Numbered from the stretch's first letter, positions 9,137 through 50,061 are shown. The stretch is 64,000 bases of DNA from Thermoanaerobaculia bacterium (GCA_022071945.1 JAJVIN010000017.1:31251-95250), one strand, 5' to 3'. Program-made: numbers and translations. The notes: generated from the sequence alone by a model not told the origin.

Positions 9137-9171
9137 GTTTGAAAAGTCTAGCGGATCCAGCCGGAAGGCCT

Positions 9172-25885: not shown

Positions 25886-26071
25886 GCATTCCTCTCTGCC
25901 TCGCCATCTTAGCTCAGCGTCATGAATCAAACGGACTATGCCGTCTAGACCAAAAAACGCATCAAAAGATCCAAATCATGCAAAGCGTGCGTTATGTCGA
26001 AATGATGGCGATGTGCGCTAGACTTCGACTCCAGTGGTCGCATTCGGACCCGCTTACCGGAGGGCTGAATC

Positions 26072-27649: not shown

Positions 27650-27675
27650 TTCGGAAAGGACGAAAGGACTTCTTT

Positions 27676-28767: not shown

Positions 28768-28799
28768 CGGCTCTCAACTGAAGGAAACGGAGGACGTTC

Positions 28800-30044: not shown

Positions 30045-30045
30045 C

Positions 30046-32007
30046 GTGGAAAGCGGCTCCCCGTCACACCGGCTGCGCTTCGGTATCGGAATCGGGGCGG
30101 GGGCGGCCGTCGCGATCCTCCTGGGTCACTTCCTGCTCGGCGGGGCCCTTTCGAACCTCGCCGAGCAGCGTGAGACCCGCCAGGGCATCGTGACCCTGCG
30201 CGCGCTCTCAGATCTCGTCTCCCGCACGGCGGATGGAGACGGTCTCCGCAAGGCGGTGACCGAGTTCCAGAAGGCCTACCCCGAGCTCAAGTCCATCCGG
30301 GTCGTCCTCCTGGAGGGCGCCTCGCTGGAGGCGTCCACCGACCCCGCGGACACGGGCGAGTGGGCGGCGCCCCGCCAGCTCTCGCGGGACGAGAAGAAGA
30401 ACGAGAAGCCCGTCTTCGACCTGATGCAGAAGATCCGCGGAACGGTCGAGGCTAACCGCGAGGAAAAGACGGCCAAGGAAGAGCTCGAGATCGGCCGCCT
30501 GGCGGACGGGAGTGGATTCAGCCTTGCTGGTCCGCTGGAAAAGAACGGCGAGGTCACCGGTCTCGTCGAGATCAAGCGCTCCTCGGCCGCCGCCGCCACT
30601 CGTCCCGGCTGGATCACGACGCTCCTCTACATCGCCGTTCCCATCCTGCTCCTGGTCGGACTCTCCTTCGGTGTCGGCAACAAGCAGATTCCGCTCGCCA
30701 TCTGTGCCGCCGTCCTTCTGATCGGGACCATCTGGGGCTACGGCGTCCAGTCGCGGTCCAAGATCAACCGCGAGGGCCTCGCCGCCTCCGACGCGGTCGC
30801 CTCGACGGCGAAGACGGGCGGGGAGCGGGTGCAATCCATCCTCCAGGGGCTCGGCATTCAGGCCGAACCCGCGCTGAATCCAGCGAGCTGGGACTCGGAC
30901 CTCGCGCGCCGTCCTCGCGCCGTCCTCACACCGGACCTCAAGGTCGACCCGGCAAAGGCCATGAGCGCCTTCGCCGGAGTCGGGACGGCCGTGACCCGCG
31001 CCACGATCCTCCTCATCATCCTCGGTGTCGCAATCGCCCTCTTCTTCGGAATGGGGTGGGCCGAGCTCTTCGCGAGAACGCTCAGAGTCCACAGGACCGC
31101 CTACTACTACGTCACGCCGGCGATGGTCGGCATGATCATCCTGGTCTTTTTCCCGTTTGCCTACGGCATCACCCTCTCCTTCACCGACTACAACATTTAC
31201 ACCACGGGCAAGCCCCTCACCGAGATCTTCAACGGCTTCCAGAACTACGTCGAGATCCTGACGGACTTCCAGATCGCGAAGCGCTCGGCCGACGGGTCGT
31301 GGGCGTTCAACTACTACAATTTCTACTGGACGTTCTTCTTCACGATCGTCTGGACCATCTCGAACGTGACGATCGGGGTGACCCTCGGGTTGATCCTGGC
31401 TCTCGTCTTGAACACGAAGACCCTGGCTCTCAAGCCGATCTACCGTGTTCTCCTCGTCTTGCCATGGGCCGTTCCGAACTACATCACGGCCCTCGTGTGG
31501 CGCGGCATGTTCCACCAGCAGTACGGTGTCGTGAACCAGGCGATCCAGATGTTCGGGGGCTCTCCGGTCTCGTGGTCGGACACTCCGTTCACGTCGTTCC
31601 TGACGGCGCTGGCCACGAACGGGTGGCTCAGCTTCCCGTTCATGATGGTCGTCTCGCTCGGAGCGTTGCAGTCGATCCCGGCTGACCTCTACGAGGCCGC
31701 CCGCGTGGACGGCGCGACCCGCTGGCAGCAGTTCACGTCGATCACCCTTCCCTCCCTCAAACCCGCGCTGGTCCCGGCCATCATTCTCTCGGTGGTGTGG
31801 ACATTCAACATGTTCAACATCATCTATCTCGTCACCGCCGGACAGCCCGCGGGTTCGACCGAGATCCTGATCACCCAGGCGTACAAATTCGCGTTCGAGA
31901 AGTACCGCTACGGCTACGCCGCCGCGTACTCGACCGTCATCTTCGGCATCCTCTTGGTCTATGGTGTCTTCCAGAACCGGATCACGAAGGCATCGGAAGG
32001 AATCTGA
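30046..32007 (+). CDS. ABC transporter permease (MalF-like) with a roughly 330-aa N-terminal extension
   Basis: GTG start 1 nt after the malE-like stop. C-terminal half has the MalF-type EAA loop region (ALVWRGMFHQ..., DLYEAARVDGATRWQQF). Confidence 0.85.
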   Translation: MESGSPSHRLRFGIGIGAGAAVAILLGHFLLGGALSNLAEQRETRQGIVTLRALSDLVSRTADGDGLRKAVTEFQKAYPELKSIRVVLLEGASLEASTDPADTGEWAAPRQLSRDEKKNEKPVFDLMQKIRGTVEANREEKTAKEELEIGRLADGSGFSLAGPLEKNGEVTGLVEIKRSSAAAATRPGWITTLLYIAVPILLLVGLSFGVGNKQIPLAICAAVLLIGTIWGYGVQSRSKINREGLAASDAVASTAKTGGERVQSILQGLGIQAEPALNPASWDSDLARRPRAVLTPDLKVDPAKAMSAFAGVGTAVTRATILLIILGVAIALFFGMGWAELFARTLRVHRTAYYYVTPAMVGMIILVFFPFAYGITLSFTDYNIYTTGKPLTEIFNGFQNYVEILTDFQIAKRSADGSWAFNYYNFYWTFFFTIVWTISNVTIGVTLGLILALVLNTKTLALKPIYRVLLVLPWAVPNYITALVWRGMFHQQYGVVNQAIQMFGGSPVSWSDTPFTSFLTALATNGWLSFPFMMVVSLGALQSIPADLYEAARVDGATRWQQFTSITLPSLKPALVPAIILSVVWTFNMFNIIYLVTAGQPAGSTEILITQAYKFAFEKYRYGYAAAYSTVIFGILLVYGVFQNRITKASEGI

Positions 32008-32021
32008 GCTCGGGGCGTGTG

Positions 32022-33125
32022 ATGAAAGACAAAGCCGGACACGACGAACTCCCCCATCTTCCCCTGCACATCTTCCTGATCATCTTCGTTCTGATCGCCA
32101 CCTACCCGATCCTCTGGGTCGTCACGATTGCCCTGTCTGGGAAACAGAGCCTAGCTCTGGCCACCCTGCCCGACCGGATCGCGGTCACAGAGGAGAGGCT
32201 CGTCCAGAACATCCCCGGGCTGAATGACGAAGAAGCCACGGCCATCGTGGAGGCCCTCGAAAACGCCAAGTGGATCGACGAGAGGGGAATCCTGACCCTC
32301 AAGCCGGAACGCGACAAGGTCGCGCCCCTCCTGCCGGCAGAGCTTTCGAAGTACGCGGAGCCGCTCCACAAGGACCTGATGGTCTGCCTGGCCGAGCCGT
32401 CCACCCTGGACCGGCTCCGGGCCATCACCCCCTGGCCCGAGACGTTCTCCCTCGAGAACTTCCGGGCCGTCTTCAGGGATCAGCCATTTGGCCGCTGGAT
32501 CATCAACAGCGCGGTGATCGCGACGGCCACGACGATCCTCGGTGTCTTTCTCGCGTGTACCGCCGGCTACGCGTTCTCGCGTTTCAGCTTTCCCGGCCGC
32601 CGCGCGGGCCTGATGTCGTTCCTCGTCTCCCAGATGTTTCCCGGAACCCTGATGCTGGTTCCGCTGTACATCATCGTGGTGCAGTGGCTCCAGCTGGGGA
32701 GTTCCCGGATAGGCCTGACCCTCATCTACGCCACCACATCGATCCCCTTCTGCGTCTGGATGCTGAAAGGGTACTTCGACACGATCCCGAAGGAGCTCGA
32801 GGAGGCCGCCCTGATCGACGGGGCCTCCCCCGGTGTGATTTTCTGGCGAATCGTGCTCCCCCTGGCCAAGCCAGCGGTGGCGGTGACGGCCCTCTTCTCG
32901 TTCATGACGGGCTGGAACGAGTTCATCCAGGCGGCCACGTTCATGGACAAGGAAGAGCTCTACACGGCGCCGGTGGGCCTCCGATTCTTCGTCGGCGGCT
33001 TCAGCCAGCAGTGGGGCTACTTCTCTGCCGGCGCCATCATCGTGTCGATCCCGATCGTCATCCTGTTCCTGTTCTTGCAGAAATATCTCGTATCCGGTCT
33101 TACTGCCGGAAGTGTCAAGGGTTGA
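32022..33125 (+). CDS. ABC transporter permease (MalG-like) with an enlarged periplasmic loop
   Basis: EAALIDGASPGVIFWRIVLP EAA motif and 6 TM segments. Start is the ATG at 32022. Confidence 0.85.
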   Translation: MKDKAGHDELPHLPLHIFLIIFVLIATYPILWVVTIALSGKQSLALATLPDRIAVTEERLVQNIPGLNDEEATAIVEALENAKWIDERGILTLKPERDKVAPLLPAELSKYAEPLHKDLMVCLAEPSTLDRLRAITPWPETFSLENFRAVFRDQPFGRWIINSAVIATATTILGVFLACTAGYAFSRFSFPGRRAGLMSFLVSQMFPGTLMLVPLYIIVVQWLQLGSSRIGLTLIYATTSIPFCVWMLKGYFDTIPKELEEAALIDGASPGVIFWRIVLPLAKPAVAVTALFSFMTGWNEFIQAATFMDKEELYTAPVGLRFFVGGFSQQWGYFSAGAIIVSIPIVILFLFLQKYLVSGLTAGSVKG

Positions 33126-33158
33126 CCCTTGCCCAAATTCAACTGGAGGTACGTTTCG

Positions 33159-33968
33159 ATGAAGAAGCTCCTGCGTCTATCCATTCTCGGCCTCGCGGCC
33201 GCCGTCCTGGCGGGCCCGGTTCTCGCCCAGGAGGTCAGTTTCAAGGACCCATCCGGGGATGACTTTGGTCCGGGCGCGTACACCTACCCGACCGACAAGG
33301 TTTACAAGAACGGTTCGTTCGACCTTGCCGGCTTCTCCATGAAGGTGAAGGGAGACAAGGCCGATTTCCAGGTGACCCTCAACAGCTCCCTCGAGGACCC
33401 CTGGGGCATGGGCAATGGTTTCGCCGTCCAGATGGTGTTCATCTTCATCCAGACCGACGTCAAGGAAGGCCGCTTCACCAAGACCCTCCCGGGCCTCAAC
33501 GTCCAGTTCGGGCCGGAGGACGGCTGGAACAAATGCGTTATCCTCTCCCCCCAGCCGCAGAACCGTGTCATGAGCGAAGTCGAGAGCAAGGCCTCCTGGG
33601 CAAAGAACGCGGTCGTGGTTCCGGTCCGGACCCGTGGCGCCGGCCGCGCCATCTCCGGGTCGGTTGACCTTTCCGCCCTCGGCGCGGGCGACCCGACCAA
33701 GTGGGGCTACCAGGTCATCGTGCAATCCAACGAGGGCTTCCCGGATGCCGGCGACGTCCTGACCCGGAAGGTCAACGAGTTCGAGGGCCAGCACCGCTTC
33801 GGCGGCGGCACCGATACCGACTGCGACCCGCACGCGATCGACCTCGTCGCGGGCAAGGGAACCGGCGACAAGAGTGAAATCGAAGAGCAGAAGAAGATGC
33901 TCGCCTACGAGTGCAACCCGGATGGCTCTGCCAAGAAGCTGGCGACCATCACCATGATCCGCAAGTGA
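33159..33968 (+). CDS. Secreted glucodextranase-like C-terminal domain protein
   Basis: Signal peptide MKKLLRLSILGLAAAVLAGPVLA. DPSGDDFGPGAYTYPTD matches the motif of the glucodextranase-like domain found in amylopullulanases. Confidence 0.55.
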   Translation: MKKLLRLSILGLAAAVLAGPVLAQEVSFKDPSGDDFGPGAYTYPTDKVYKNGSFDLAGFSMKVKGDKADFQVTLNSSLEDPWGMGNGFAVQMVFIFIQTDVKEGRFTKTLPGLNVQFGPEDGWNKCVILSPQPQNRVMSEVESKASWAKNAVVVPVRTRGAGRAISGSVDLSALGAGDPTKWGYQVIVQSNEGFPDAGDVLTRKVNEFEGQHRFGGGTDTDCDPHAIDLVAGKGTGDKSEIEEQKKMLAYECNPDGSAKKLATITMIRK

Positions 33969-34006
33969 AGCGGACGAACGACAACCTGACTCACTGGAGG
34001 AGTTGT

Positions 34007-36202
34007 ATGCGCTTTTCGAGAAAGCTAGCTCTCCTGGCGGCGGCTGCGGTCTTTTCGACCTCGGCGTTCGCGCAGCAGGGCCCCAAACTGACCATCGGTG
34101 GAACCACCTATACCAAGTGGCTCTGGGGCAACGCCCGCGACCAGGGCGCCCTCTTCAACTTCAAGGATGCGCCGGGCGAGGGCTGGGGCGACAACGGTCA
34201 GGGGACCGAGATCGAGCTCCTGCTCAAGGCCAAGGTCTCCCGGGCCGTCCAAGTGGACGCTCGCCTTCACAGCCGGTTCTACCAGAACTTCTGGACGAAC
34301 ATGGGCGGCTGGGGCAACCCCTCTGGCGGGAACGACTGCGCCTCTTCGGGGACGTCGGTCGGCTGTGGTGAGTTCGACCCGCGCTCGAACCAGTACGTCA
34401 AGCTCCGTGGCGTCACCGTCACCCTGACCCCCGGCTACAAGTGGATCGACTCCGCCACGATCGGTTCCTCCGACTGGGGCATGTTCGACCCGTTCGTCGT
34501 GGGCCGCATCCGCTACATCGACCGTGACAACGTCGCGGGTCTCCTCTTCCAGGGCTCCGCGATGGGCCGGAAGATGACCTGGGACGTCGCCCGCATCTCT
34601 CTGCCGCGCCTGTTCGCCGGCCCCTCCTACAACACCGGGAACTTCCACGCCGCCGACGGCGCCTACGTCTTCCAGTCGAAGATCGCGCCGAACTCGATGT
34701 TCGACATGACCGCCCTCATGGAGTGGGTGAACGACCTCGAGGTCAATGCCAAGGACATCAACTGGGACAACGGCAAGGAAACCCGGATGCGGTTCCGCCA
34801 GACCGTCTTCGGCGGCAAGCTCGGCTTCCACCCGAGCGCCAAGGTCGACGTCCGCGCCGCTGGCTACTACTCGACCTACGAGTCCGCCAACGACCTGGCC
34901 CCCGCGGACTTCTTCGGCGTCTCCGGCTTCTCTCCGGTCCCCGCTGGCAAGCACAAGGACTGGAGCGGAAAGCTCAACCTCGACTTCATCGATCCGTTCG
35001 ACGTCGGCCTGACGTTCAACATCGAAGCGTTCCACATCGGCGCCGAGTACGCGTCAGTGATGGCTGCCCGCCGTGAGTCCGACGTCCTCCTCACCGAGGG
35101 CCACGACGGCACATGGTCGGCCCCTGGCCCGACGAACGCCTCCTACGGCGTGTTCGGTGGCAACCCGACGATCATCGGCTACGGCGGCTGGTCCGGAAAC
35201 GCCCAGCAGGTCGCGACGATCAACGTCGACAACCAGTTCACCGACTTCAACGAGCCCATGGCCGAGAGCGCCATCGGTTGGGAAGGCATCACCTTCCAGC
35301 CGGTGTTCCAGAAGGGCGCCCTGGACATGGCCGCCGAGTACAGCTACATCTCCTACGACACGAACTGGCAGGCCTGGGGCAACCCGAACCGGGCGATCCT
35401 CTCCTCCCTGTATCCGAACATGGAGTCCGACGCCGGTCTCGGCCACTACCGCAATGCCTACGCGCCGTTCCAGGACAAGACCACCCAGATCGCTCTCGTC
35501 CGCGGCAAGTACGTCCTGCCGGTCGGCAAGGGCATCGACCTGTTCGGCAAGATCAAGTTCATCGACGAGACCGACAAGCGCATGAACGAGGCCCGCTACC
35601 TCCCCTACAAGGCGGGTGACTGCGCGACTTCCGGGACCCTGGGCTGCAAGGGCGAGAAGAACTTCTACTCCCCCGGCAACTCCACCGCCGATCTCTACGG
35701 CAACCCCGAAGTCATCACGGTCAACGGCGTGACCGGCTACAAGTGGAAGCCGTTCAACAGCCTCTCCGACGACGACCGCGACATGAGCTACTTCATGTTC
35801 AACCTCGGCGGCGGATACCAGTTCACGAACGACTTCTACTCCTCGCTCGAGTACGTCCGCTACAACGTCGACCTCAAGGACGGAAACACCGCGTTCCAGG
35901 CCTACAACCTGCACGAGATGGCTTCCGGCTACCACAAGAAGAACCAGATCATCTGGAAGATCCGTTACACGCTCGGCGGCATCTCCGAGTGCGGCATGGA
36001 GTACCAGTACAACTTCGGCTCTTTCGAGCCCGACTTCGGCGGCGGCTTCGTTCCGCAGCGCGCCTCGGCCGACGTGGCCAACAGCAATCACGTCGAGCCC
36101 GGCTCGCTTGGCTTCCAGAACCGCTTCGGCGGCTGGAACAGCCTCGAGACCAGGGACTTCAGCCACCAGCGCCTCAAGGCGTACATGAAGATCCTCTTCT
36201 AA
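34007..36202 (+). CDS. Outer-membrane beta-barrel protein, candidate maltodextrin porin of the locus
   Basis: RBS GGAGG lies 6 nt upstream. Signal peptide MRFSRKLALLAAAAVFSTSAFA. Aromatic and Gly-rich amphipathic strands throughout. C-terminal ...YMKILF with a terminal Phe, typical of BAM-dependent barrels. Confidence 0.6.
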   Translation: MRFSRKLALLAAAAVFSTSAFAQQGPKLTIGGTTYTKWLWGNARDQGALFNFKDAPGEGWGDNGQGTEIELLLKAKVSRAVQVDARLHSRFYQNFWTNMGGWGNPSGGNDCASSGTSVGCGEFDPRSNQYVKLRGVTVTLTPGYKWIDSATIGSSDWGMFDPFVVGRIRYIDRDNVAGLLFQGSAMGRKMTWDVARISLPRLFAGPSYNTGNFHAADGAYVFQSKIAPNSMFDMTALMEWVNDLEVNAKDINWDNGKETRMRFRQTVFGGKLGFHPSAKVDVRAAGYYSTYESANDLAPADFFGVSGFSPVPAGKHKDWSGKLNLDFIDPFDVGLTFNIEAFHIGAEYASVMAARRESDVLLTEGHDGTWSAPGPTNASYGVFGGNPTIIGYGGWSGNAQQVATINVDNQFTDFNEPMAESAIGWEGITFQPVFQKGALDMAAEYSYISYDTNWQAWGNPNRAILSSLYPNMESDAGLGHYRNAYAPFQDKTTQIALVRGKYVLPVGKGIDLFGKIKFIDETDKRMNEARYLPYKAGDCATSGTLGCKGEKNFYSPGNSTADLYGNPEVITVNGVTGYKWKPFNSLSDDDRDMSYFMFNLGGGYQFTNDFYSSLEYVRYNVDLKDGNTAFQAYNLHEMASGYHKKNQIIWKIRYTLGGISECGMEYQYNFGSFEPDFGGGFVPQRASADVANSNHVEPGSLGFQNRFGGWNSLETRDFSHQRLKAYMKILF

Positions 36203-36224
36203 AGCTCGACCTTCCGAGTTTTTG

Positions 36225-36259
36225 CGCCCGGCGGCCTCGCCCGCCGGGCGTTTTTCTTG
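36225..36259 (+). terminator. Rho-independent terminator: CGCCCGGCGG-ccucgc-CCGCCGGGCG followed by TTTTTCTTG
   Basis: Perfect 10-bp GC stem plus T-tract, immediately after the outer-membrane protein gene stop. Confidence 0.75.
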
Positions 36260-36282
36260 CCGCCCCCCTTGACGAATCAACC

Positions 36283-37035
36283 GTGACTCTCCATACTTCT
36301 CTTGTGGTCAGACCTCTTACCAGTGAGCCGCACACCCTCCCGGTTCCTCTTCGTCCCGCGGAACACGCGGAATCCGTCCTCATCTCGGCCATCCTGGACG
36401 GAACTCACCCCGCCGGCTCGGACCTTCCCGCCGAGAGGGTTCTCGCCACGTCGATCGGAGTGACCCGCCCCACCCTGCGCGAGGCGCTCAAGAAGCTCGA
36501 ACGTGACGGGTGGATCAGCATCCAGCACGGCAAACCGACCCGGGTCGCCGACGTGTTCGAGGAGGGAGGCCTCAACATCCTGGGAAGCCTGGTGAGGCAT
36601 CCGGGGGCTCTCCCGCCCGGGTTCGTGGAGAAGCTGCTGGAGGTCCGGCTCGCGATGGCGCCCGCCTACACGGCCCTCGCCGTCGCGCGGGCCCCACGGG
36701 ATCTCGCCTCGTTCCTGGGCGGCGCGCCGTCGCTCACGGACGAGCCGGAGGCGTTCGCCGCCTTCGACTGGCGCCTTCACCTCCGATTGACGAAGCTCTC
36801 GGGCAACTTCGTCTTCCGTCTGATCCTGAACGGCTTCCAGGGTTTCTACGAGGAGCTGGCCCGGCTCTACTTCGCACCTGAGGCGGCACGAATGGAATCT
36901 CGCAACTACTACGAGGAACTCTCGGCCACGTGCCTCGCGGCAGCCCCGCAGGCGGCAGAACAGCTCACGAGGCGGGTCATGGCCCGCAGTCTCGACCTCT
37001 GGAAGTCGAGTGGCGGAAGAGAGGTGAGAGCATGA
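36283..37035 (+). CDS. GntR-family transcriptional regulator, FadR/FCD subfamily
   Basis: wHTH: RVLATSIGVTRPTLREALKKLERDGWISIQHGKPTRV. Followed by an all-alpha FCD-like domain. Start is uncertain; I used the GTG at 36283. Confidence 0.75.
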   Translation: MTLHTSLVVRPLTSEPHTLPVPLRPAEHAESVLISAILDGTHPAGSDLPAERVLATSIGVTRPTLREALKKLERDGWISIQHGKPTRVADVFEEGGLNILGSLVRHPGALPPGFVEKLLEVRLAMAPAYTALAVARAPRDLASFLGGAPSLTDEPEAFAAFDWRLHLRLTKLSGNFVFRLILNGFQGFYEELARLYFAPEAARMESRNYYEELSATCLAAAPQAAEQLTRRVMARSLDLWKSSGGREVRA

Positions 37036-38639
37036 AACGCTGGAACGGGTGGGGAGACGACTCCGTCAACGCCAACGTCCCCGCAGCCGCACTGCGGCTT
37101 CTGGAATCGATCGTCGGGGCCCCGGCCACGCCGAGGGACGCCTCACGCGAGAAGGTTCTCGCTTCCGTTCCCCCTTCCAGGCTTTCGGGGGAGACAGGGA
37201 TCGACACCCGCCCGGAGGCCCGGCTGGCGCACGCGTGCGGCCAGAGCCTGCCCGACTGGATGGCCCTGCGGACGGGAACCGTGGGCGTCTTTCCGGACGG
37301 GGTTGCGTTCCCCGAGAGCCGCGAAGACGTTCGAGCCCTCATCGGCACGGCCCGGAATCGGGGGTGGCGGCTGATCCCCTACGGCGGCGGGACGAGCGTG
37401 GCCGGCCACATCACTCCGGAGCCCTCCGACGCGCCCGTCGTCACCGTGGACGTATCTCGAATGAACGCTCTCTTGGAACTCGATGCCGAGAGCCAGCTCG
37501 CGCGGTTCGGCGCCGGAGTGGCCGGGCCCGACCTCGAGGCCGCCCTCAGGGCGCGCGGATTCACCCTCGGGCACTTCCCGCAGTCCTTCGAGTACTCGAC
37601 CCTCGGAGGCTGGATCGCGACTCGCTCGAGCGGCCAGCAGTCCCTCTTCTACGGCCGGATCGAGCGGCTCTTCGCATCCGGACATGTCGAGACTCCGACA
37701 GGGAGCCTGTCGATCTCCGCGGTGCCCGCTTCCGCCGCCGGGCCGGATCTGCGCGAGATCGTCCTCGGTTCCGAGGGGCGGATCGGCATCATCACCGACG
37801 CGACGGTTCGAGTGAGCCGGATGCCGGAAGAAGAGGACTTCCACGGCATCTTCTTTCCGTCCTTCGACGCCGCACTCTCCGCGCTCCGCGAACTCCTCCA
37901 GGGGAGGCTGCCGCTCTCGATGCTGCGGCTGTCGACGCCCGAAGAGACACGCACAACCCTCCTCCTCGCGGGGCATGCGAGGCTGATACGCGCACTCGAG
38001 GGGATCCTTGCCTTGCGTGGAGCGGGAACGGGAAAGTGCATGCTGCTCGCGGGGCTGACGGGCCAGGAGCGCGTCGTCGCGGCGGCGAGGAAGGAACTCC
38101 TCTCCGTCTGCCGCCGCCACGGAGCGATCCACGTTGGCAAGAGCTTCGGGCACGCCTTCAAGAAGAACCGGTTCCGGGCGCCCTACCTCCGTAATGACCT
38201 CTGGGAGAAGGGCTACGCGGTCGACACGCTCGAGACGGCGGTCCGATGGTCGCGGCTCCCGGGCCTCATCTCCGGTGTCGAATCCGCCATCAGGGGAGCC
38301 CTCGCCGCAGACGGGGAAGCCGTCCACGTCTTCACGCACCTCTCGCATCCGTACCAGGACGGCTCGAGCATCTACACGACGTACCTGTACCGGCTCTCGG
38401 GCGATCCCGCGCGAGACCTCGAGAGGTGGCGGCGCATGAAGCGCGCGGCCAGCCTGGCCATCGTCGAGCACGGGGGAACGATCTCGCACCAGCACGGCGT
38501 GGGAATCGACCACGCCCCCTACCTCGCAGCCGAGAAGGGAGGCCGCGGCATGGAATTCCTGGCATCGGCCCTGTCTCATTTCGACCCTCAGGGACTCATG
38601 AACCCGGGAAAGCTGATCCGGGCGGAGGCTCGCTCGTGA
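37032..38639 (+). CDS. FAD-linked oxidase (PCMH-type FAD-binding), alkyldihydroxyacetone-phosphate synthase (AGPS)-like
   Basis: Start overlaps the regulator stop (ATGA). N-terminal MKRWNGWGDDS carries the WNGWG motif I associate with AGPS. FAD-binding PYGGGTSVAGH. C-terminal HQHGVGIDHAPY. Confidence 0.8.
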   Translation: MKRWNGWGDDSVNANVPAAALRLLESIVGAPATPRDASREKVLASVPPSRLSGETGIDTRPEARLAHACGQSLPDWMALRTGTVGVFPDGVAFPESREDVRALIGTARNRGWRLIPYGGGTSVAGHITPEPSDAPVVTVDVSRMNALLELDAESQLARFGAGVAGPDLEAALRARGFTLGHFPQSFEYSTLGGWIATRSSGQQSLFYGRIERLFASGHVETPTGSLSISAVPASAAGPDLREIVLGSEGRIGIITDATVRVSRMPEEEDFHGIFFPSFDAALSALRELLQGRLPLSMLRLSTPEETRTTLLLAGHARLIRALEGILALRGAGTGKCMLLAGLTGQERVVAAARKELLSVCRRHGAIHVGKSFGHAFKKNRFRAPYLRNDLWEKGYAVDTLETAVRWSRLPGLISGVESAIRGALAADGEAVHVFTHLSHPYQDGSSIYTTYLYRLSGDPARDLERWRRMKRAASLAIVEHGGTISHQHGVGIDHAPYLAAEKGGRGMEFLASALSHFDPQGLMNPGKLIRAEARS

Positions 38640-40306
38640 ACTCCGGGGAAAGCCGCAGAAAGGCCCTCGAATCCGCCTCGCGCCAGGGCTTCGACCTCCT
38701 GATCATCGGCGGCGGGATCACCGGCGCGGGGATCCTGAAAGAAGCCGTGGAGCTGGGGCTGACGGCCATCCTCGTGGAGCAGCGGGACTTTGCCTGGGGC
38801 ACCTCGAGCCGCTCCTCCAAGCTCGTCCACGGGGGGCTTCGGTACCTGGCCCAGGGCAAGCTCCGCCTCACTCGAGATTCGGTCCGCGAACGGCAGCGCC
38901 TGCTCTCGGAGGCCCCTGGTCTCGTCGAGCCTCTCGACTTCCTCTTGCCGACGTACAGGAAGTCGAGTCCGGGCCCCGTCGCACTGACGGCAGGGCTGAC
39001 TCTGTACGATCTCCTCGCCCTCTCGTGGAGCCATCGCTCGTACGGGTCCGTCGACTTCCAGATGCTCGCCCCGCGCATCAACGCCCGTGGACTCGAGGGC
39101 GGCTTTCGCTATCGCGACGCACAGACCGACGACGCGCGGCTCGTCTTCCGCCTGATCCGGGAAGCCGTCCTGGACGGCGCCCTCGCCTTCAACGACACCT
39201 CCGTCGAGGATTTCGTGCGGACGGGGGACAAGATCCAGGGGGCCGTCGTCCGCGACCAGCTGACGCGCGAGACGTTCACGATCCGGGCGAAGGCCGTCAT
39301 CAACGCCACGGGCGTCTGGGCGGACAAGCTGCGGAGTTCGACCGGAGGATCGCCGAAACTCAGGCCGCTGCGCGGCAGCCACCTCGTCTTTCCCGCCTGG
39401 CGGCTGCCCGTCGCGCAGGCCGTGGGGTTCTCCCACCCGAAAGACCGGCGGCCCGTCTTTCTCCTGCCCTGGGAGGGTGTCACCCTCGCCGGCACGACCG
39501 ACGTCGACCACTCCCCCTCTCTCGATAGGGAGCCCTCGATCAGCGACGAAGAGGTCCAGTACATCCTCGACGCCCTGACCGACCGGTTCCCCGCCGCGAA
39601 CCTGGGAAGGCAGGATGTCCTGTCGACCTTCAGCGGAGTCCGGCCCGTGGTGGCCTCGGGAACTCAGGACCCCTCCAAGGAGTCGCGGGATCACGCCGTG
39701 TGGGAGGAGTCTGGACTCGTCACGGTCACGGGAGGAAAGCTGACGACCTTCCGCCTGATCGCCCGGGACGCCCTCGAGGCAGCCCGGAAGCTCCTGGGCA
39801 GATCACTCGAGTGGCGAAAGACAGCCCGGATTTTCGACCCCGTCGAACCGGGACTTCTCGATGACTATCCTCTCGAGCCGGCGATCAAGGGCCGTCTCCT
39901 CGGCCGGCACGGCAAGGAGGCCCCCGAGGTCCTCCGGAAGGCGCCGGCACGTGAACGGGCTCTCATTCCCGGAACTGGGTACCTCTGGGCGGAGCTTCGC
40001 TGGGCTCTCTGTCGCGAGGCGGTCCACCACCTCGACGACCTGCTCCTGCGGCGGACACGGATCGGCCTCGTCCTCCCCGAGGGCGGGGCCGGCCTCTTCG
40101 ACCGGGTCGAGACGCTCTGCACGACGGAAGCGGGCTGGTCCAGGGAGCGATGGGAAGTGGAGAAGGAGCGTTACCTGGAACTCCATCGAACCAGTTACAG
40201 CCTCTCCGGAGCGCGTGCGAAGATGACGCGCCCGGCCGGTGAACCGAAGCGAGACACTCCGGAAGGGAAGAACCAGAGTGAACGAGCCGTCCCGATCCGC
40301 GTCTGA
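38636..40306 (+). CDS. glpD: FAD-dependent glycerol-3-phosphate dehydrogenase
   Basis: GTG start overlapping the previous stop (GTGA). [14 protein letters not shown] dinucleotide-binding motif. [15 protein letters not shown] is the GlpD signature. Confidence 0.9.
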
Positions 40307-41882
40307 GAAGGGGGAAGACCTGCTGCTGGCGATCGACGCCGGCACCCAGAGCATTCGCGCCCTCGCCTTCGACCTCGCAGGGAACCTCGTCGCCAAGGCC
40401 AGAGTTCCTCTCGTCCCGTACGTCTCGCCGCACCCTGGCTGGGCCGAGCAGGATCCCGCCTACTACTGGAGATCGCTCTCGGAGGCCTGCCAGACTCTGT
40501 TTGCCGGGAATCCGGGCCTCTCAGAGAGGATCCGGGGCGTCGCGCTGACCACCCAGCGCGCCACGACCGTCTGCCTGGACGGCAACGGCGAGCCTCTCCG
40601 GCCGGCCATCGTCTGGCTCGACCAGCGCCGGACGGAGGGACTCGACCCGATCCGGGGACTCTGGGGCCTAGCCTTCAAGCTCTCCGGGATGTCGGAGACC
40701 GTCTCCTACTTCCAGGCCGAGGCAGAAGTGAACTGGCTGGCCGCCCATGAGCCAGAGGTCTGGAAGGCGACGCGCCACTACGTCCTTCTCTCCGGATACC
40801 TCACCTACAAGCTGACCGGCCGGTTCGTCGACTCGACCGGATGCCAGGTGGCCTACATCCCATTCGATTACAAAAGCCACCAGTGGGCCCGGAGCTGGGA
40901 CTGGAAGTGGCAGGCACTGCCGCTCGATAGAAAGCAACTGCCCGAGATCGTCCCCCCCGGGCAGCCGCTGGGCGAGATCTCGGAGGCAGCCTCGGCCGCG
41001 ACGGGCCTTCCGAAAGGTCTCCCCGTCATCGCGGCCGCCGCCGACAAGGCCTGCGAGGTGCTCGGCGCGGGGTGTCTCGAACCAGACATCGCGTGCCTGA
41101 GTTACGGGACGACCGCAACGATCAACACGACTCACAGGAGCTACGTCGAACCCTACCCGCTCATCCCACCCTATCCGGCGGCGCTCCCGGGCGCCTACAA
41201 CCTCGAGATCCAGATCTACCGTGGCTTCTGGATGGTGAGCTGGTTCCGGCAGGAGTTCGGGCACCGGGAAGAGGAACTCGCCCGCGAACGGGGCGTGGCT
41301 CCCGAGGTTCTCTTCGACGAACTCGTGGCGGACGTGCCGCCCGGGTCGATGGGTCTGATCCTCCAGCCCTACTGGTCCCCCGGAGTGAAGATCCCGGGCC
41401 CCGAAGCCAAGGGCGCGATCATCGGATTCGGGGACGTCCACACCCGGGCTCACATGTACCGCGCCATCCTGGAAGGTCTCGCCTATGCCCTGAGGGAAGG
41501 GAAGGAACGGACGGAGCGGCGGAGCAAGCTCCCGATCCGGGAGATCCGGGTCGCGGGCGGAGGGTCTCAGAGCGACGCGGCCATGCAACTGACGGCGGAC
41601 GTCTTCAACCTCCCCGCAAAAAGGCCGCACGTCTACGAAGCCTCAGGACTGGGCGCGGCCATCGTCCTCTCCGTCGGGCTCGGTCTGCACCCGAGCTTCG
41701 AAGCCGCCGTCGCCTCGATGACGCGTGTGGGCCGGACCTTCACGCCCGACCCGAAGACCGTCGCGATCTACGACCGTCTCTACGAGCGCGTCTACAAGCA
41801 GATGTACAAGCGGCTCCGCCCGCTCTACGAGGAGATCCGGGAGATCACGGGGTACCCGCCGAGGCCGGGGAAGACGGGCTGA
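40278..41882 (+). CDS. FGGY-family carbohydrate kinase (glycerol-kinase-like)
   Basis: [15 protein letters not shown]-terminal actin-fold motif. [13 protein letters not shown]-terminal motif. Start GTG at 40278 (or 40239) overlaps the end of glpD. Confidence 0.85.
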
Positions 41883-42175
41883 AGGACCGCTTCAATCTTC
41901 GTTCCGCGTTCCGCTGATCCATGAGGGCGTCCATGAGAGCCGCCGTGTCGCCACCGTCCAGGGGGCGCGCCTGCATCGAGGAGGTCACACCGGGCCGGAA
42001 TCGCACGCCTCTGTGCCACCAACCTGTCGAGAATGCCGGAGTTCTCCGGTAGTGGCCCGAGGAGTGCCACAGGGCGTCCACGAGAGAGCACCTGCAGCGT
42101 GACGCCCCGAGACACCTGGGTGAGGTGCCCGCTCAGATGCTGCCGCAACTCACTGACGGTGACCGTGGCCTCCAT
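41825..42175 (-). CDS. Phd/YefM-type antitoxin domain protein with no cognate toxin (orphan or remnant)
   Basis: [44 protein letters not shown] is a typical Phd/YefM fold. The remaining roughly 70 codons are unstructured and overlap the 3' end of the convergent FGGY kinase gene. No Doc/YoeB/PIN-like ORF sits on either side. Confidence 0.4.
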
Positions 42176-42206
42176 GTCGCACAGTGTAGGACCGGCGCGG
42201 CTCACC

Positions 42207-44936
42207 TCACGGGTTGCAGACCGCCGACCTGGGCGCCGGCTCGGACGCGGGACGCGCCTCGAGAACCACTCCTGGCTCGTTCCCGAGAAGCCAGTTACGC
42301 ATGGTGTCGTGATACGAGAAGAGACCCGTCCCGTTCGATACTTTGTCCTCCAGGAACTTCGGGTTATTGCGGAGAGCGGTGTGGTTGTCGCAGTGCGGTC
42401 CGTAGAGGCCCGGGTTCATCGAGATCCCGGCCTTCTCCTCGGCAGTTGACTGTATGCGGGAGAGCCGGTCCAGATGGTCCCAGGTCGCCTGGGCGTACTG
42501 GTACAGCTGGGAACCGAACGGCCATTCGGGCGTTCCGAACGCATCCGTCGTGTTCGGATCGATCAGGTCCTGCCTGAGGAAAAAGGGCGTTGTGATGTGG
42601 TTCTCCCGGACGTGAGCTGGGTCGGCGCAACGCCAGGCGTCGGCGGGGTGGAAGGTCAGACATGACTCATCCATGCGTCCCGCCATCAGCACGCCGAAGA
42701 CGCGCAGGCTCGACTGCCTGGAAGACTGATACGTCGGGAAGCTCTCGTTTGACGGCTCGTTGGCAGCGTCCATGATGCCGCGGACAACGAGCCTGCCGGG
42801 GTTGCGGTTCGTGCTCGCGAAGTAAGGCGCGAGCCGGTCCACGTTCCTCTGGACCCCGCCGGACCCCGCGGACTCCCCCGCGAACAGGATCACTTCCGCG
42901 TCGTCGAGACTCGGGAGAGCCATCGACTGATCGGACGCGGCATCCTTGTAGGTCACGCCTCCTCGCAGTTCGCTGATCACGGCTTCCAGGATCCGGGCGC
43001 CCTGGAAGTTGATCGTGTAGGCGCGCCCCGTCTCGTCCGTGAGATACCGGCTCGCCACTCGTCCGGTCCAGGAGTCCGAGCTGCAGTAGTAGACCCAGAC
43101 CTTGTTGAAGTCGGTGAAGGCATTGATCGGTCCGGTGAAGAGAATGCCGCCGATCCCGATCCCCTTCGCCGTCAGGAACCGCGTCGACATCTTGTCCGCG
43201 CCGAAGTTCGTGTCGATCGAACACCACCGCATCGCGCAGGCCGTCCCCTCACCGCAGAAGCCGCCCCCCTCGAGATAGATGATCCAGCGGTTCGAGCTCG
43301 CCCCCGTTCCCTTGCGCACGTAGAAGAGCCCAGGGGTCCCATCGTTGCAGACGGCCTCCGGATACCGGTCGAGGTCGATCACGACGCGAGAGAGGTTCGT
43401 CCCGGCGGCCACGCCCCCGGCGGAACCCTCCTTCGGGGCGCAGGGACTCGTCACGGAGAAGTTCGGCGGGAGCTCGATCTCGGGATAGGCAAAGGAGTAG
43501 ATGACCGGGTCTCCCGTCCCGTTGTCGATGACGGAGGCATAGACATCCACCGTTCCGTCGCCGAGGAGAACCTCGAGAGTCGAGTTCTCGGGAATCGTGA
43601 CCTCAGGGAAGAGATCCCCGAGGGAGGGCTGGAAGAAGGCGTAGGGACCAAGGCTGACCGCACCCGCGCGGGAGGAAAGGGACACTCCCGCGCGGTCACG
43701 AAGGGTGATGTCGACGACAGCACCGGCGGGACCGGCGAGAAACCCGACGTTGGTTCGATATCCCGGGGTCTCGCTCCCGTGCGTGAGCCCGATGAAGGAG
43801 CCCGTCAGGCCCTTCACGAGGTACCGATCCGGTGCTCGCGTCTTCTGGACGGCTCCGAACGTCGATCCGTCCGCACGGATGTTCGAGGTCCTCCCGAGGA
43901 CGAGAAGGGGCCCGTCGGTCTCGAACCGGAGGGAGCCGCTGGTCCCCTCCGGGGCTCCGAGGGCCCGCAGGATGTCGTTTACCTCTCTGACGGCCCGCGC
44001 CGGGACATCGACCGTGAGGCTTCCCGAGTACGGCTGGCCGGCCGCCACGAGAGAGACCCCCCTGACCGCGACCTTGCGGGAGACGGATTCGGGATTCACG
44101 AGCCTCACATCGGTGCGGAAGAACGTCTCGAATCGTCCCGGACCGCGCGAGGCCCCATCGAGGTACACATCGGTCCAGCTGCCCGGAGTGATCCTCTGCG
44201 GCTGGACCGCGAAGCCGTCACCCGTCACGTTGTCGACCACGGCGCTGTAGCCCGTGACCTTGCCCGAGGTCACCCTGAGCTCGAGCCTGGCCACCGAAAG
44301 CTCGGAGAGAGCGGCGCCCGCGATCTCACGGATGTTGACCTGAGTGGCCAGTGGCCCTCCAGAAAACGTCCTTCGGCCGAGTTCCTTCCCCGCCGTGCCG
44401 AAGACCAAGGCGTCAACCGAGGAACCCGGCTCGGCGAGGACGATGGCGATGTTGGTCCGGAACCCAGTCGAGCTCTCCGCCGACTCGGAGACCCACCCGA
44501 TGTGGCCGGTCTGTCCGGCCACGAGCAGCTTCTCGGTGGGCTCGGCCTCGAGAGCCAGACCGAACGTTCCCGCCGGATCGGCGCTGTTGTAGGTTCGAGC
44601 CGAGATCAGAAGACCTCCCGATGCGGTCACGCGGGCGGCGCCGACACGATCCCCCGGCCCGAAAAGTTCTTCCAAGGCATTCGGCAGGACGAGCGTCTCC
44701 CCCGCGCCGATCCTTCGCGACGCGGGTGCGGCATCGCCCCCCAGGATCGGAATCAGGGCGAACGTGACGTCGACGGGCGATGCCGAGGTATTCCGCAGCT
44801 TCAGGTCGCTCTTGAAGAACGTCTCATTCCTTCCGGGCGCATTGGTGAGCCCCGGCACGATCCACTCGGCACCCAGAACCGGGAGGAATGGAAACCCCAG
44901 TGTGAAAACGAGGATCGCCCGGACGGCTCTCTTCAT
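42207..44936 (-). CDS. Secreted multidomain protein: three roughly 130-aa tandem N-terminal repeats followed by a pectin-acetylesterase (PAE)/Notum-like esterase domain
   Basis: Signal peptide MKRAVRAILVFTLGFPFLPVLGA. Repeats begin NETFFKSDLKLRN / RFETFFRTDVRLVNP / TPGYRTNVGFLAG. Esterase part NRWIIYLEGGGFCGEGTAC...VWVYYCSSDSWTG...FAGESAGSGG. Confidence 0.7.
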   Translation of the reverse strand: MKRAVRAILVFTLGFPFLPVLGAEWIVPGLTNAPGRNETFFKSDLKLRNTSASPVDVTFALIPILGGDAAPASRRIGAGETLVLPNALEELFGPGDRVGAARVTASGGLLISARTYNSADPAGTFGLALEAEPTEKLLVAGQTGHIGWVSESAESSTGFRTNIAIVLAEPGSSVDALVFGTAGKELGRRTFSGGPLATQVNIREIAGAALSELSVARLELRVTSGKVTGYSAVVDNVTGDGFAVQPQRITPGSWTDVYLDGASRGPGRFETFFRTDVRLVNPESVSRKVAVRGVSLVAAGQPYSGSLTVDVPARAVREVNDILRALGAPEGTSGSLRFETDGPLLVLGRTSNIRADGSTFGAVQKTRAPDRYLVKGLTGSFIGLTHGSETPGYRTNVGFLAGPAGAVVDITLRDRAGVSLSSRAGAVSLGPYAFFQPSLGDLFPEVTIPENSTLEVLLGDGTVDVYASVIDNGTGDPVIYSFAYPEIELPPNFSVTSPCAPKEGSAGGVAAGTNLSRVVIDLDRYPEAVCNDGTPGLFYVRKGTGASSNRWIIYLEGGGFCGEGTACAMRWCSIDTNFGADKMSTRFLTAKGIGIGGILFTGPINAFTDFNKVWVYYCSSDSWTGRVASRYLTDETGRAYTINFQGARILEAVISELRGGVTYKDAASDQSMALPSLDDAEVILFAGESAGSGGVQRNVDRLAPYFASTNRNPGRLVVRGIMDAANEPSNESFPTYQSSRQSSLRVFGVLMAGRMDESCLTFHPADAWRCADPAHVRENHITTPFFLRQDLIDPNTTDAFGTPEWPFGSQLYQYAQATWDHLDRLSRIQSTAEEKAGISMNPGLYGPHCDNHTALRNNPKFLEDKVSNGTGLFSYHDTMRNWLLGNEPGVVLEARPASEPAPRSAVCNP

Positions 44937-45065: not shown

Positions 45066-48000
45066 GTGTCAGAGGAGGCCTCGATGAGCTACGCCGCTGT
45101 CGAACCGGAAGTCCCCTGGCTGGGAAGTCCTCGCTTCCGCAGGGTCCTCTCCACCGTGATCCTGGCCGCGCTCCTTCTGTTCCTCGTCGGGAGCGTCAGG
45201 GTCGCCTTGAAGAAGCCATCGGGCTCGCAGGTCTTCCTTTATGGCCAGACGGCTCTCTCGCCCGGAAAACCGGCTTCCTTCCGAGCTTTCGTGCTCGATT
45301 CCCGGGATCGCCGGCCCCTATCCGGGGCGGCCGTTTCGGCCAGGCTCGTCTCGGCTTCCGGAAAGTCCCGTCCCCTCGCTCAGGTGAAGACCGGCGAGGA
45401 TGGAACCGTCCAGATCTCCGGCGAGATCCCGCCGGATCTCCCGGAAGGCAGCTACAGGCTCGCCGTCGAGGCGGACTCTGCCGCCGGGACGAGCGAAGTC
45501 GCGCGCGACGTTTCGGTGAAACGCTCTTTTCGGACCATGGTCTCGACAGACAAGCCGATCTATCAGCCGGGACAGACCATCCACATCCGGACACTTTCCC
45601 TGCACAGCTCCGATCTGGCTCCAGTCGAGAAGCGGCCCGTCACGATCACGGTGCAGGATCCCAAGGGCAACAAGGTCTTCAAGGCCCTCAAGACCACGTC
45701 CGCATACGGGATCGCATCGGCTGACTTCGTGCTCGCCGACCAGGTCAACACCGGCGACTATGCAATCGAGGCCGTCCTGGGCGACACCGTCTCGCGCCGC
45801 AGCGTGGAAGTGAAGGTCTACACCCTTCCCAAGTACCGGATCGAGCTCTCGACGCAGCGCGGCTATTTCCAGCCGGGAGAAACCGCCGCCGTGACCCTCC
45901 GGGCGACGTACACGTTCGGCAAACCCGTGCGCGAGGCCGAGATCGTCATCACGGCCCAGGAGTTCATCGAGAAGTTCAGGCCTTTCGCCGAGGTCCGGGG
46001 CGAGACCGATGCCGAAGGGCGCTTTCGCGCCGAGATTCCCCTGCCGCGAACCTTCGCCGGCCAGGGTGTCAGGAAGGGCGACGCTCCGCTGAAGATCGAG
46101 GCAAAGGTCACGGACAAGGCGGGCCACACCCAGGAGCGTTCCCTCGACCTGACCGTCTCCGAGGAGCCGATCCGCGTCGAGGCATTCCCCGAGAGCGGCG
46201 TGCTCGTCCCCCGGGTCGAGAACATCGTCTACATCGTGACGGCCTACCCCGATGGACGGCCGGCCGAGACCACCCTGACCGTCGGAAAGGATTCGAGGTC
46301 CGTGAAGACCTCGGCTTACGGCATCGCGAAGGTCACCCTGATACCCGATGGTGGAGACCTCTCGGTGCCCATCCGGGCGACCGACTCACACGGTGCTTCC
46401 GTCTCGGTCACGCGGACGCTCAAACCGGGACCAGCGGACGGGTTCATCCTGCGCACAAGCCGGCCGGTCTACCGCGCCGGCGAGACCGCGCACCTCTCGA
46501 TCCTGTCCGCGGCCGAGTCAGGACGGGTCTTCGTCGACGCGGTCAAGGGAGGCCAGACCGTCCTGACGGACACGGTCGACATCAAGGGGCACCACGGGGA
46601 GCTGGCTCTCGATATCAGCCCCGACCTCGCCGGCACGATCGAGGTGCACGCCTACCGGCTCCTGCCAAACGGAGAGTTCGTCAGGGACAGCCGAGTCATC
46701 CAGGTGGAGCCGGCCTCGGACCTTTCGATCGGAGTGGAGCTCGACCGGGAGACCTATCGCCCCGGCGAAAAGGCGCTCTTGAAGTTCCTCGTCGAGAGGA
46801 GGAAGGGGGAGCCCGTTCAGGCGGCTCTCAGCCTCGCCGGCGTCGACGAGGCCGTCTTCGCGCTCTCCGAGATGCGCCCCGGCCTCGAGGAAGTCTTCTT
46901 CCTCCTCCAGGAGGAGATCCTGAAACCCCGCTGGGAGCTTCATGCGGCCCTGCCGGTTGCGCCCGGGAGCGTGCTTGCCGAAGGTGGCGAGCCGCGTCCA
47001 GACCGGGAGGAGGCAAAAAAGGTCCTCTTTGCGGCGGCGGGCGGATGCTCGGCGCCCCAGGTCACCGTCAGCAAGGGATACGAAGAGAAGGTCCGGCAAA
47101 CGCGGGACGAGAAGCGTGCGTACGCGCGACACGTCCTGGCGGGGCTCGCGCTCCTTCCGACGCTCCTCTTCGCCATCTCCACCCTTCTCCTCGGCTTCTA
47201 CGCGGTCGTCCGGCTGATTCACAGGGGTCAACCGGCGGACCTGAGCGCGGAGCATCACGCAGAGCTGCGGTCCACTTCGGGGTGGGTGATCTGGACCTGG
47301 ATGCTCACTCCGTACCTCGTGCTCGCGACCGCGGCGGGCTCGGCCGCGCTTCTCGGCCGGGTCTCGTACCGGTGGGAGAAGGGGGCCGGGGTCCTGGCGG
47401 CCCTGGTCCATCTCGCCCTCTTCGTCGTCCTTCTCAGGGCGGCGAAACGCTGGAAGAGTTCCCCCGCGGCAACCGCGACTCCCCTTCTGAGGAAGCTCCT
47501 CTGGACCGTTCCCACAGCTAGCATTTGCCTCGGACTCGGGTTTGTCGCGCTTCTTCTGGGACTTCAGGGCTACCCCCGTGTGATCCCCGAGGAGCTCGGC
47601 GCGATCGCCCTGGGGACGCTTCTGACCGGCACCCTGCTCATGGCGGGTTTTCTCGCGATCGCGCGCCAGTGCGCGCTCCGGCCGGCCAGCGCGGGTCGCT
47701 GGTTCTGGCTTCTTCTCAGCCGCCCGGCGGCCCTGGCGCTGCCCGCTCTTCTCATGGCGCTCGTCGCCTTCGCCGGGGCTCGACGGTCCAGCCCCATGTT
47801 GGCCGGAAAGATCGCGGATGACGGAGCGATGCGGCTCGAGATGGCCCCGCCGGCCGCCGCCGAGGCGAAAAAGCAGGACGTGATTGGCGCGCCTGCCGGC
47901 ACGCTCGTGGAACCCACGCGAGTCCGCCGGTTCTTCCCGGAAACGCTCTTCTTCCTGCCCGAGGTCATCACGGACGCGGAAGGGAAAGCCCAGGTCGAGA

Positions 48001-50024: not shown

Positions 50025-50061
50025 GAGAAGGGCCTCACGGTTCGAGAAGCCTGTATCAGCC

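Follow-up and report, generated by a model that had tools for sequence, protein, structure and literature searches.

A FadR-linked operon joining an AGPS-family flavoenzyme to a GlpD-like dehydrogenase and an FGGY kinase in a Thermoanaerobaculia bacterium

Bacterial homologs of the alkyl-dihydroxyacetone phosphate (alkyl-DHAP) synthase AGPS are routinely annotated as ether-lipid synthases, and arguments over which bacteria, Acidobacteria among them, can make ether lipids draw on them. What, then, does such a homolog do when its gene sits in a row with genes for a FadR-type regulator, a GlpD-like dehydrogenase, and an FGGY-family kinase? This question is raised by positions 36283 to 41882 of a 64,000-nucleotide (nt) stretch of DNA from a Thermoanaerobaculia bacterium (GCA_022071945.1 JAJVIN010000017.1:31251-95250), which as a whole is here called the window. 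An earlier note, made from the DNA sequence alone, had suggested that the row routes DHAP to ether lipids rather than serving simple glycerol catabolism.

The best explanation of this cassette is an autoregulated four-gene operon that is the counterpart of the Pseudomonas aeruginosa PA3026-PA3024 operon, with a dedicated FadR-family repressor replacing the AraC-type regulator GliR. As to its function, we favor at about even confidence an acyl-CoA-induced glycerolipid-backbone module for lipid scavenging or remodeling, in which a ketone from the GlpD-like enzyme would undergo AGPS-type chemistry. Salvage or catabolism is more likely than de novo ether-lipid synthesis from glycerol. The operon of the three enzymes in P. 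aeruginosa is already known, as is the in silico proposal that it makes ether lipids (PMC8151288); the new points are a form under FadR control whose operator is conserved, the wide distribution, the GlpK ligands missing from the kinase, and the evidence from gene fusions.

The oxidase and the row in which it is encoded

The plus strand of 36283-41882 carries four co-directional open reading frames (ORFs) whose GC content at third codon positions (GC3), 0.77 to 0.85, is of the coding type. These encode a FadR-family regulator (36304..37035, in an ORF that opens with GTG 36283; GntR and FadR_C domains), an AGPS-family enzyme of 535 amino acids (aa) that binds flavin adenine dinucleotide (FAD) (37032..38639), a GlpD/GlpO-like FAD dehydrogenase of 556 aa (38636..40306; DAO and DAO_C), and an FGGY-family kinase of 534 aa (40278..41882; FGGY_N and FGGY_C). 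The ORFs, GC3, and Pfam domains agree that the four-gene row of the earlier note is real, and the gene order is more than chance, because the same order recurs across phyla. The earlier note had described 4-nt overlaps throughout. This holds for the first two junctions, where the regulator stop and oxidase start share ATGA (37032-37035) and the oxidase stop and GlpD-like start share GTGA (38636-38639), and fails at the third, where the sequence, GTCTGA, offers no in-frame start at 40303. Ahead of the conserved N-terminal protein segment of the kinase, the only in-frame starts are GTG 40278, which has GGAAGGGAAG just 5', and GTG 40239, which would give a 547-aa protein; the overlap between the GlpD-like and kinase genes is therefore 29 or 68 nt.

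The oxidase matches Pfam FAD_binding_4 (1.4e-30) and FAD-oxidase_C (1.3e-36), as expected of a VAO-type flavoprotein. In phmmer searches of the PDB it scored far better against Dictyostelium ADPS (2uuu, 2.7e-79) and guinea-pig AGPS (4bby, 4.4e-57) than against D-lactate dehydrogenase (D-LDH; 1.6e-24). The predicted structure gave the same ranking. With the AlphaFold (AF2) model of the oxidase (pLDDT 79.7, pTM 0.82) as a Foldseek query, the first 37 matches were all AGPS, 36 of them at TMq 0.76-0.87 and the last at 0.66, and D-LDH came next at TMq of about 0.67-0.69. The predicted N terminus, MKRWNGWGDD, was read correctly in the earlier note, as was the significance of its WNGWG motif: this aligns with KWNGWGDT of Dictyostelium ADPS, and W-x-GWG is frequent among representatives of the AGPS family.

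The catalytic residues lead to the same assignment. Mutagenesis supports R419, Y578, H615, and H617 in the guinea-pig enzyme and R352, R447, and Y508 in the Dictyostelium enzyme (PMC3509576). Their equivalents in the window oxidase, R299, R387, Y448, H486, and H488, are invariant in 24 homologs, whereas Escherichia coli GlcD reads E/-/V/G/E/H at the AGPS catalytic sites. One difference is that the HHH loop of the guinea-pig enzyme (H615-H616-H617) is HQH in the window oxidase, with Q487 invariant throughout the 24-sequence alignment of close homologs; most other AGPS-family representatives read HHH, as do two members of the window oxidase's own clade in the tree described below.

The window oxidase is 31.7% identical to Dictyostelium ADPS and 29.1% identical to guinea-pig AGPS, which are themselves 33.8% identical to each other. 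In a neighbor-joining tree of 134 sequences it falls in a 23-member clade (bootstrap 85/100) that includes proteins of Pseudomonas, Marinobacter, Duganella, Archangium, and Herpetosiphon, and the eukaryotic enzymes form a separate clade. The deeper nodes have no bootstrap support, and a 2026 PNAS study likewise judged the phylogenetic signal of AGPS insufficient. Taken together, sequence, predicted fold, and catalytic residues identify the oxidase as a member of the AGPS family that belongs to a distinct, PA3026-like subfamily with an HQH loop. A GlcD or D-LDH identity is rejected by the phmmer scores, the Foldseek ranking, and the residue set; clustering and inspection of the His/Tyr set, both of which had been named as ways to overturn the AGPS-like assignment, left it standing.

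Partner enzymes, distribution, and fusions

In a scan of one genome per species, at least 597 loci encode a relative of the oxidase. We analyzed 85 loci, the best 80 of these together with five found earlier. Of the 85, 82 have a GlpD-like gene next to the AGPS-like gene, and in two of the other three the contig ends there; the cassette kinase occurs in about 55. The loci come from Acidobacteriota, Chloroflexota, Bacillota, Actinomycetota, Myxococcota, and Pseudomonadota. Among the hosts are Thermoanaerobaculia, Holophagales, many Chloroflexota, Bacillota, Acidimicrobiia, Archangium, and Gemmatimonadota, and from the proteobacteria Pseudomonas, Marinobacter, Massilia, Duganella, and Rhodoferax. 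For each of the three window enzymes, the nearest relatives are encoded in metagenome-assembled genomes (MAGs) of Thermoanaerobaculia and Holophagales, at 63-76% identity. The cassette is thus common, contrary to an earlier rating of the cluster as rare (12 of 1748 genomes; PMC8151288). Nor does it track the argument that Acidobacteria are known producers of ether lipids, since Pseudomonas, Marinobacter, Massilia, and Chloroflexota often carry it.

Many Chloroflexota loci (L002, L007, L008, L013, L014, L017, and others) carry the FadR, AGPS-like, and GlpD-like genes with no adjacent FGGY kinase gene, which suggests that the kinase may not be needed or may have its gene at another place in the genome.

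Beyond the cassette itself, all-versus-all clustering of the neighboring ORFs revealed no conserved partner besides regulators. The earlier note had called for a search for an enzyme that forms acyl-DHAP. No acyltransferase (DHAP acyltransferase included), FAR, or elb gene was found in the annotated flanks of the window, and none is conserved across the 85 loci; nor is any sugar transporter or isomerase conserved with the cassette. Two loci (L001 and the Rhodoferax locus L067) have GDSL lipase genes close to the cassette, and a YegS-type lipid kinase is adjacent in seven Pseudomonas loci and one KSB1 locus only.

The partner enzymes resemble GlpD and GlpK less closely than their families suggest. 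For the GlpD-like enzyme, the best PDB matches are GlpO (2rgh, 6e-76) and E. coli GlpD (5e-54), and its score against the NCBIfam GlpD model, 289.5 bits, lies below the equivalog cutoff of 360. Residues R54, Y55, H233, T270, R317, R332, and K354 of E. coli GlpD, which we take to form the glycerol-3-phosphate (G3P) site, all align with identical residues in the cassette enzymes, making a glycerol-phosphate-type head group likely. The kinase scores best against the NCBIfam model for the xylulokinase XylB (251 bits, cutoff 380) and reaches only 163 and 154 bits against two GlpK models with cutoffs of 590 and 498. When 56 cassette kinases were aligned to E. coli GlpK, three of the residues that we take to be glycerol ligands were kept (R83, W103, and D245) and three were not: G, S, or A stands in place of E84, F or L in place of Y135, and F270 is missing. 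On this sequence evidence the kinase is not a canonical GlpK, and since polar GlpK ligands have been lost, its substrate is probably not plain glycerol. The FGGY-glpD pair had been taken for the standard route of glycerol catabolism, a view that neither the model scores nor the ligand residues of the kinase bear out. The window kinase is 54-74% identical to the cassette kinases of most other loci across phyla, the lowest value being 44% (Agitococcus, L039); a tblastn search of plasmids with the kinase gave no ortholog, the best FGGY matches reaching at most 34% identity.

In more distant members of the AGPS family, GlpD and other partners occur as fusions. Among the representatives we found four AGPS-GlpD fusions of about 1100 aa and one fusion of an acyltransferase to AGPS. 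A follow-up search extended the AGPS-GlpD type to at least 30 protein clusters in KSB1, Calditrichota, Thermodesulfobacteriota, Pseudomonadota, and Riflebacteria, and added several fusions of AGPS to a PlsC-type acyltransferase and one to DAGK_cat/YegS_C (P0372; L093 7001-9331). A 1146-aa AGPS-GlpD fusion is encoded in a tight same-strand row (L092 1-12379) with genes for FadB, a FadE-type acyl-CoA dehydrogenase, a thioesterase, an SDR protein, and an aldehyde dehydrogenase ahead of it, and an NAD epimerase/NAD_binding_4 protein and a patatin after it; this looks like a lipid-catabolic or remodeling operon built around the fusion. In KSB1 (L096 1848-6356), a separate gene for a YegS-type lipid kinase comes after the fusion gene. 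The tight pairing of AGPS-like and GlpD-like enzymes, and their fusion in many lineages, would be accounted for most simply by a GlpD-like enzyme that makes a DHAP-type ketone for the AGPS-like enzyme.

Three further fusion loci have another setting. In L091 (a Thermodesulfobacteriota MAG), L094, and L095 (about 6270-10315 in each), the fusion gene abuts, or overlaps by a few nt, an upstream gene for a metallo-beta-lactamase-fold protein (Lactamase_B/ODP), and a response-regulator/CheA/CheD-type set lies 3' of it.

The proteobacterial form of the cassette has already been described. Kotecka et al. 2021 reported the P. aeruginosa operon PA3026-PA3025-PA3024 with its neighbor PA3023 and the AraC regulator GliR (PA3027), which strongly activates PA3026-PA3024, the phospholipase C gene plcA, and PA3342 (PMC8151288). 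In 28 proteobacterial loci of our set, a divergent AraC-type regulator (Arabinose_bd, HTH_18) likewise stands in place of FadR. The Rhodoferax locus L067 has the layout published for PA3027-PA3024 orthologs, with an AraC regulator, a glycerate kinase, an uncharacterized protein, and a lipolytic enzyme ahead of the trio; the orthology of the window genes to PA3026-PA3024 was inferred through this layout and other Pseudomonas loci. Searches of the literature on AGPS with glpD or FGGY genes, and on Rv2251, found nothing functional, and P. aeruginosa omics papers mentioning PA3025 or PA3026 were uninformative.

FadR control and the role of the module

The regulator matches Pfam FadR_C (7e-34) and GntR (1e-16), passes the cutoff of the NCBIfam FadR model NF003444 (198 bits, cutoff 189), and aligns over its full length with E. 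coli FadR structures (2.5e-43, 37% identity). Among the residues that we take to contact acyl-CoA in FadR, the alignment shows S219, W223, Y172, Y179, and R213 kept and G216 changed. Judged by these matches and by the operator described below, the regulator is a true FadR homolog, in line with the FadR type named in the earlier note, and has a FadR-type operator. FadR accompanies the non-proteobacterial cassettes in five phyla.

The operon begins with a sigma-70-like promoter, TTGACG-17 nt-CATACT (36269..36297, + strand; TTGACG 36269, CATACT 36297), and no second promoter-like site was found in 36100-42300, where shuffled sequence averages 0.3 sites. GTG 36304 is the likelier start of the regulator, since GTG 36283 sits within the promoter spacer; if this start is used, the regulator mRNA may be leaderless. 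Directly after the -10 hexamer and over the predicted transcription start lies a FadR-box palindrome, TTGTGGTCAGACCTCTT (36302..36318, + strand), whose core, TGGTCAGACC at 36305-36314, has its single match in the whole 64-kb window here. The E. coli fadB operator, for comparison, is ATCTGGTACGACCAGAT. All 25 of 25 FadR-linked loci have exactly one such palindrome upstream of the FadR gene, with the consensus AACTGGTCAGACCACTT; the loose search pattern has a background of 7.4% in random 230-nt windows from the same loci. That the box lies just past the -10 hexamer points to FadR repressing the whole operon, its own gene included, and regulation looks inducible and of the repressor type, presumably with an acyl ligand relieving repression by FadR.

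These observations can be joined in a proposed sequence of events. FadR bound to the 17-bp box just 3' of the -10 hexamer would block transcription until a long-chain acyl ligand, most likely acyl-CoA, released it. The FGGY kinase would then phosphorylate the free primary hydroxyl of a glycerol-type substrate, giving a 1-radyl- or plain glycerol-3-phosphate, and the GlpD-like flavoprotein would oxidize the 2-hydroxyl beside the phosphate to a DHAP-type ketone. On this ketone the AGPS-like flavoenzyme would act by Tyr-assisted enolization and an FAD-N5 adduct, so that the C1-O substituent is exchanged or removed. Candidate substrates are 1-O-alkyl- or 1-acyl-glycerols or their 3-phosphates, and candidate products are DHAP along with a fatty alcohol or acid that would enter beta-oxidation. 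The FadR ligand, all of the substrates, and the direction of the AGPS-type step are our suppositions.

The AGPS-like and GlpD-like pair is linked to lipid turnover along three independent lines, regulatory or contextual: it is under FadR control, it is co-regulated with a phospholipase C, and it is found together with genes for beta-oxidation, lipases, and lipid kinases. These lines supply neither the acyltransferase nor the reductase that de novo ether-lipid synthesis requires. A narrower version of the proposal, possible but doubtful, is that in the acyl-CoA-induced module the GlpD-like enzyme directly oxidizes 1-radyl-sn-glycerol-3-phosphate (alkyl-G3P or lysophosphatidic acid) rather than free G3P, to yield 1-radyl-DHAP for the AGPS-type enzyme. 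If this is true, the module would be the first bacterial pathway for cleavage of the alkylglycerol ether bond, with the kinase acting first, the dehydrogenase second, and AGPS last, running "in reverse" to DHAP and fatty alcohol, or alternatively a GNPAT-independent route of ester-to-ether remodeling.

Several points weigh against a salvage or remodeling role. Lipid-gene neighborhoods occur in few loci only, and a fusion may join enzymes that feed a common third step, as in FAR-GNPAT, so that the AGPS-GlpD fusion is no proof of consecutive steps. Cleavage of an alkoxy leaving group by an AGPS-type enzyme is itself a conjecture. The kinase residue argument depends on an alignment at about 30% identity. 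Because the GlpD-like enzyme keeps every G3P-site residue that was checked, plain G3P may be its substrate; the substrate assignments are all predictions. Deletion of PA3026-PA3024 was without phenotype on glycerol, on Biolog plates, in motility, and in biofilm formation, and some cassette hosts have no other glpK or glpD genes (PMC8151288), which would fit a housekeeping role in glycerol use.

That last point belongs to another account, in which the row is a plain glycerol or G3P catabolic operon induced during lipid breakdown and the AGPS-like protein has an accessory redox function, such as that of a hydroxyacid dehydrogenase. The retained GlpD active-site residues fit it, as does the reported lack of other glpK and glpD genes in some hosts (PMC8151288); GlpK does belong to the FGGY kinases, and FadR control would tie use of the glycerol backbone to fatty-acid availability. 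Set against this are the oxidase, which has the non-redox AGPS residues and not those of GlcD or D-LDH, the kinase, which lacks E84, Y135, and F270 of GlpK and scores far below the GlpK cutoffs, the absence of glpF and GlpR from the cassette, and the normal growth on glycerol of P. aeruginosa deleted for the operon (PMC8151288), so that we regard this account as quite improbable. A role in catabolism of another polyol or ketose phosphate is highly improbable. Here the AGPS-like enzyme would perform a new reaction on a keto-sugar phosphate, in analogy to erythritol catabolism, whose kinase EryA is of the FGGY family and whose dehydrogenase EryB is GlpD-like. That shared architecture, the xylulokinase model as the kinase's top match, and the carbohydrate genes upstream in the window speak for it, but a terminator and the cassette's own promoter separate it from those genes, the regulator is of the FadR type and not a sugar regulator, the recurrent links are to lipid kinases, acyltransferases, lipases, and beta-oxidation genes, and no sugar transporter or isomerase travels with the cassette.

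De novo ether-lipid synthesis, the route of the earlier note, would convert glycerol through G3P to DHAP, rely on an unlinked acyltransferase for acyl-DHAP, and have the AGPS-like enzyme swap the acyl group for a fatty alcohol. Kotecka et al. had already put forward a glycerol, G3P, DHAP, alkylglycerone-phosphate series for PA3026-PA3024 by KEGG-style database mapping only (PMC8151288), so the pathway is not new. In its favor, the oxidase belongs to the AGPS family and retains the R/R/Y/H/H set, AGPS-acyltransferase fusions exist in other bacteria, and the nearest relatives are from Thermoanaerobaculia and Holophagales, some Acidobacteria being makers of ether lipids (PMC13159169). Yet the acyltransferase, FAR, and elb genes are missing from the window flanks and are not conserved among the loci, the genetically validated bacterial AGPS, MXAN_1676, sits instead with a FAR-GNPAT fusion (PMC9131029), and a FadR repressor in control is what one sees for the fad catabolic genes. 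DHAP is moreover a central metabolite for which a dedicated supply is needless, and the kinase is not GlpK-like. The cassette is also abundant in Pseudomonas, Marinobacter, and Massilia, which to our knowledge are not known for ether lipids. The AGPS assignment of the earlier note therefore stands at the level of the family, and the genomic context lends its pathway no support; we consider this route unlikely.

These results bear on the annotation of ether-lipid producers. A large, well-supported AGPS subfamily, with members in at least 597 species-level genomes, goes firmly with a GlpD-like enzyme and in most cases an FGGY kinase rather than with an acyltransferase and a reductase, so its presence should not count as evidence of ether-lipid synthesis. 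Because the module occurs in such tractable organisms as P. aeruginosa and Marinobacter, the role of bacterial AGPS-like enzymes is directly testable. Cleavage of the ether bond or its GNPAT-independent formation, if true, would be a new reaction route in lipid metabolism.

Flanking genes and comparison with known systems

The 5' boundary of the unit is the intrinsic terminator of the upstream gene (36224..36256, + strand), an 11-bp GC-rich stem followed by a T-run, and the promoter starts about 13 nt past its end (~36256). That gene belongs to a maltodextrin/starch-type cluster (26069-36202, + strand) with an alpha-amylase, a solute-binding protein, two ABC permeases, a Glucodextran_C lipoprotein, and a protein of 763 aa that has no Pfam match and may belong to the outer membrane; about 440 aa, also without a Pfam match, extend the first permease (30034-32007) at its N terminus. 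Membership of the cassette in this cluster was rejected, as the terminator and a separate promoter intervene. In the 324-nt gap 3' of the kinase gene lies a small ORF (41825-42205, - strand) whose N terminus is weakly like the Phd/YefM antitoxin, below the Pfam cutoff (24.1 against 29.8 bits). The next large gene is convergent (42207-44936, - strand) and encodes a 909-aa protein that ends in a pectinacetylesterase/Notum-type (PAE) domain and whose long N-terminal region has no Pfam match. Farther on (45066-56802) are genes for a 1652-aa bacterial alpha-2-macroglobulin and then, on the other strand, a hybrid sensor kinase of 1656 aa that carries Reg_prop/Y_Y_Y domains, and a PAS hybrid kinase.

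Compared with the AGPS pathway of eukaryotes and myxobacteria, the window oxidase shares the fold, the N-terminal W-x-GWG extension, and the Arg/Arg/Tyr/His/His set, but differs in its HQH loop and separate subfamily, and in being partnered by a GlpD-like enzyme and an FGGY kinase where the others have FAR and GNPAT. In Myxococcus xanthus, where MXAN_1676-1674 provide FAR, GNPAT, and AGPS, the AGPS is about 42% identical to the human enzyme and stands beside a FAR-GNPAT fusion protein (PMC9131029). Canonical glpFK/glpD systems offer the same enzyme superfamilies and the order of a kinase and then a FAD dehydrogenase; unlike them, the window cassette scores under the equivalog cutoffs, has lost GlpK glycerol ligands, and has neither a facilitator nor GlpR.

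The closest regulatory parallel is the E. coli FadR regulon, with which the window shares a winged-helix and FadR_C regulator, an operator core, TGGTNNGACC, in common with the fadB operator, and a box whose position just after the -10 hexamer fits repression. The window differs in that the FadR gene is itself the first gene of the operon apparently under its control, that the 64 kb contain one box only, and that the targets are neither fad nor fab genes. Among the closest known systems is PA3026-PA3024. Its three enzyme families recur in unchanged order in the window, whose oxidase falls in a clade with the Pseudomonas, Marinobacter, and Rhodoferax orthologs at 53-58% identity, and both systems have a link to lipid metabolism. 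Where P. aeruginosa uses the divergent AraC activator GliR, the window has a co-transcribed FadR-family repressor and a FadR box; and whereas PA3023 is a YegS-type lipid kinase, the 64-kb window has no YegS homolog. The position of PA3023 beside the Pseudomonas operon is nonetheless mirrored elsewhere, in the AGPS-YegS fusion protein P0372 and in the KSB1 pair of an AGPS-GlpD fusion with a YegS-type kinase.

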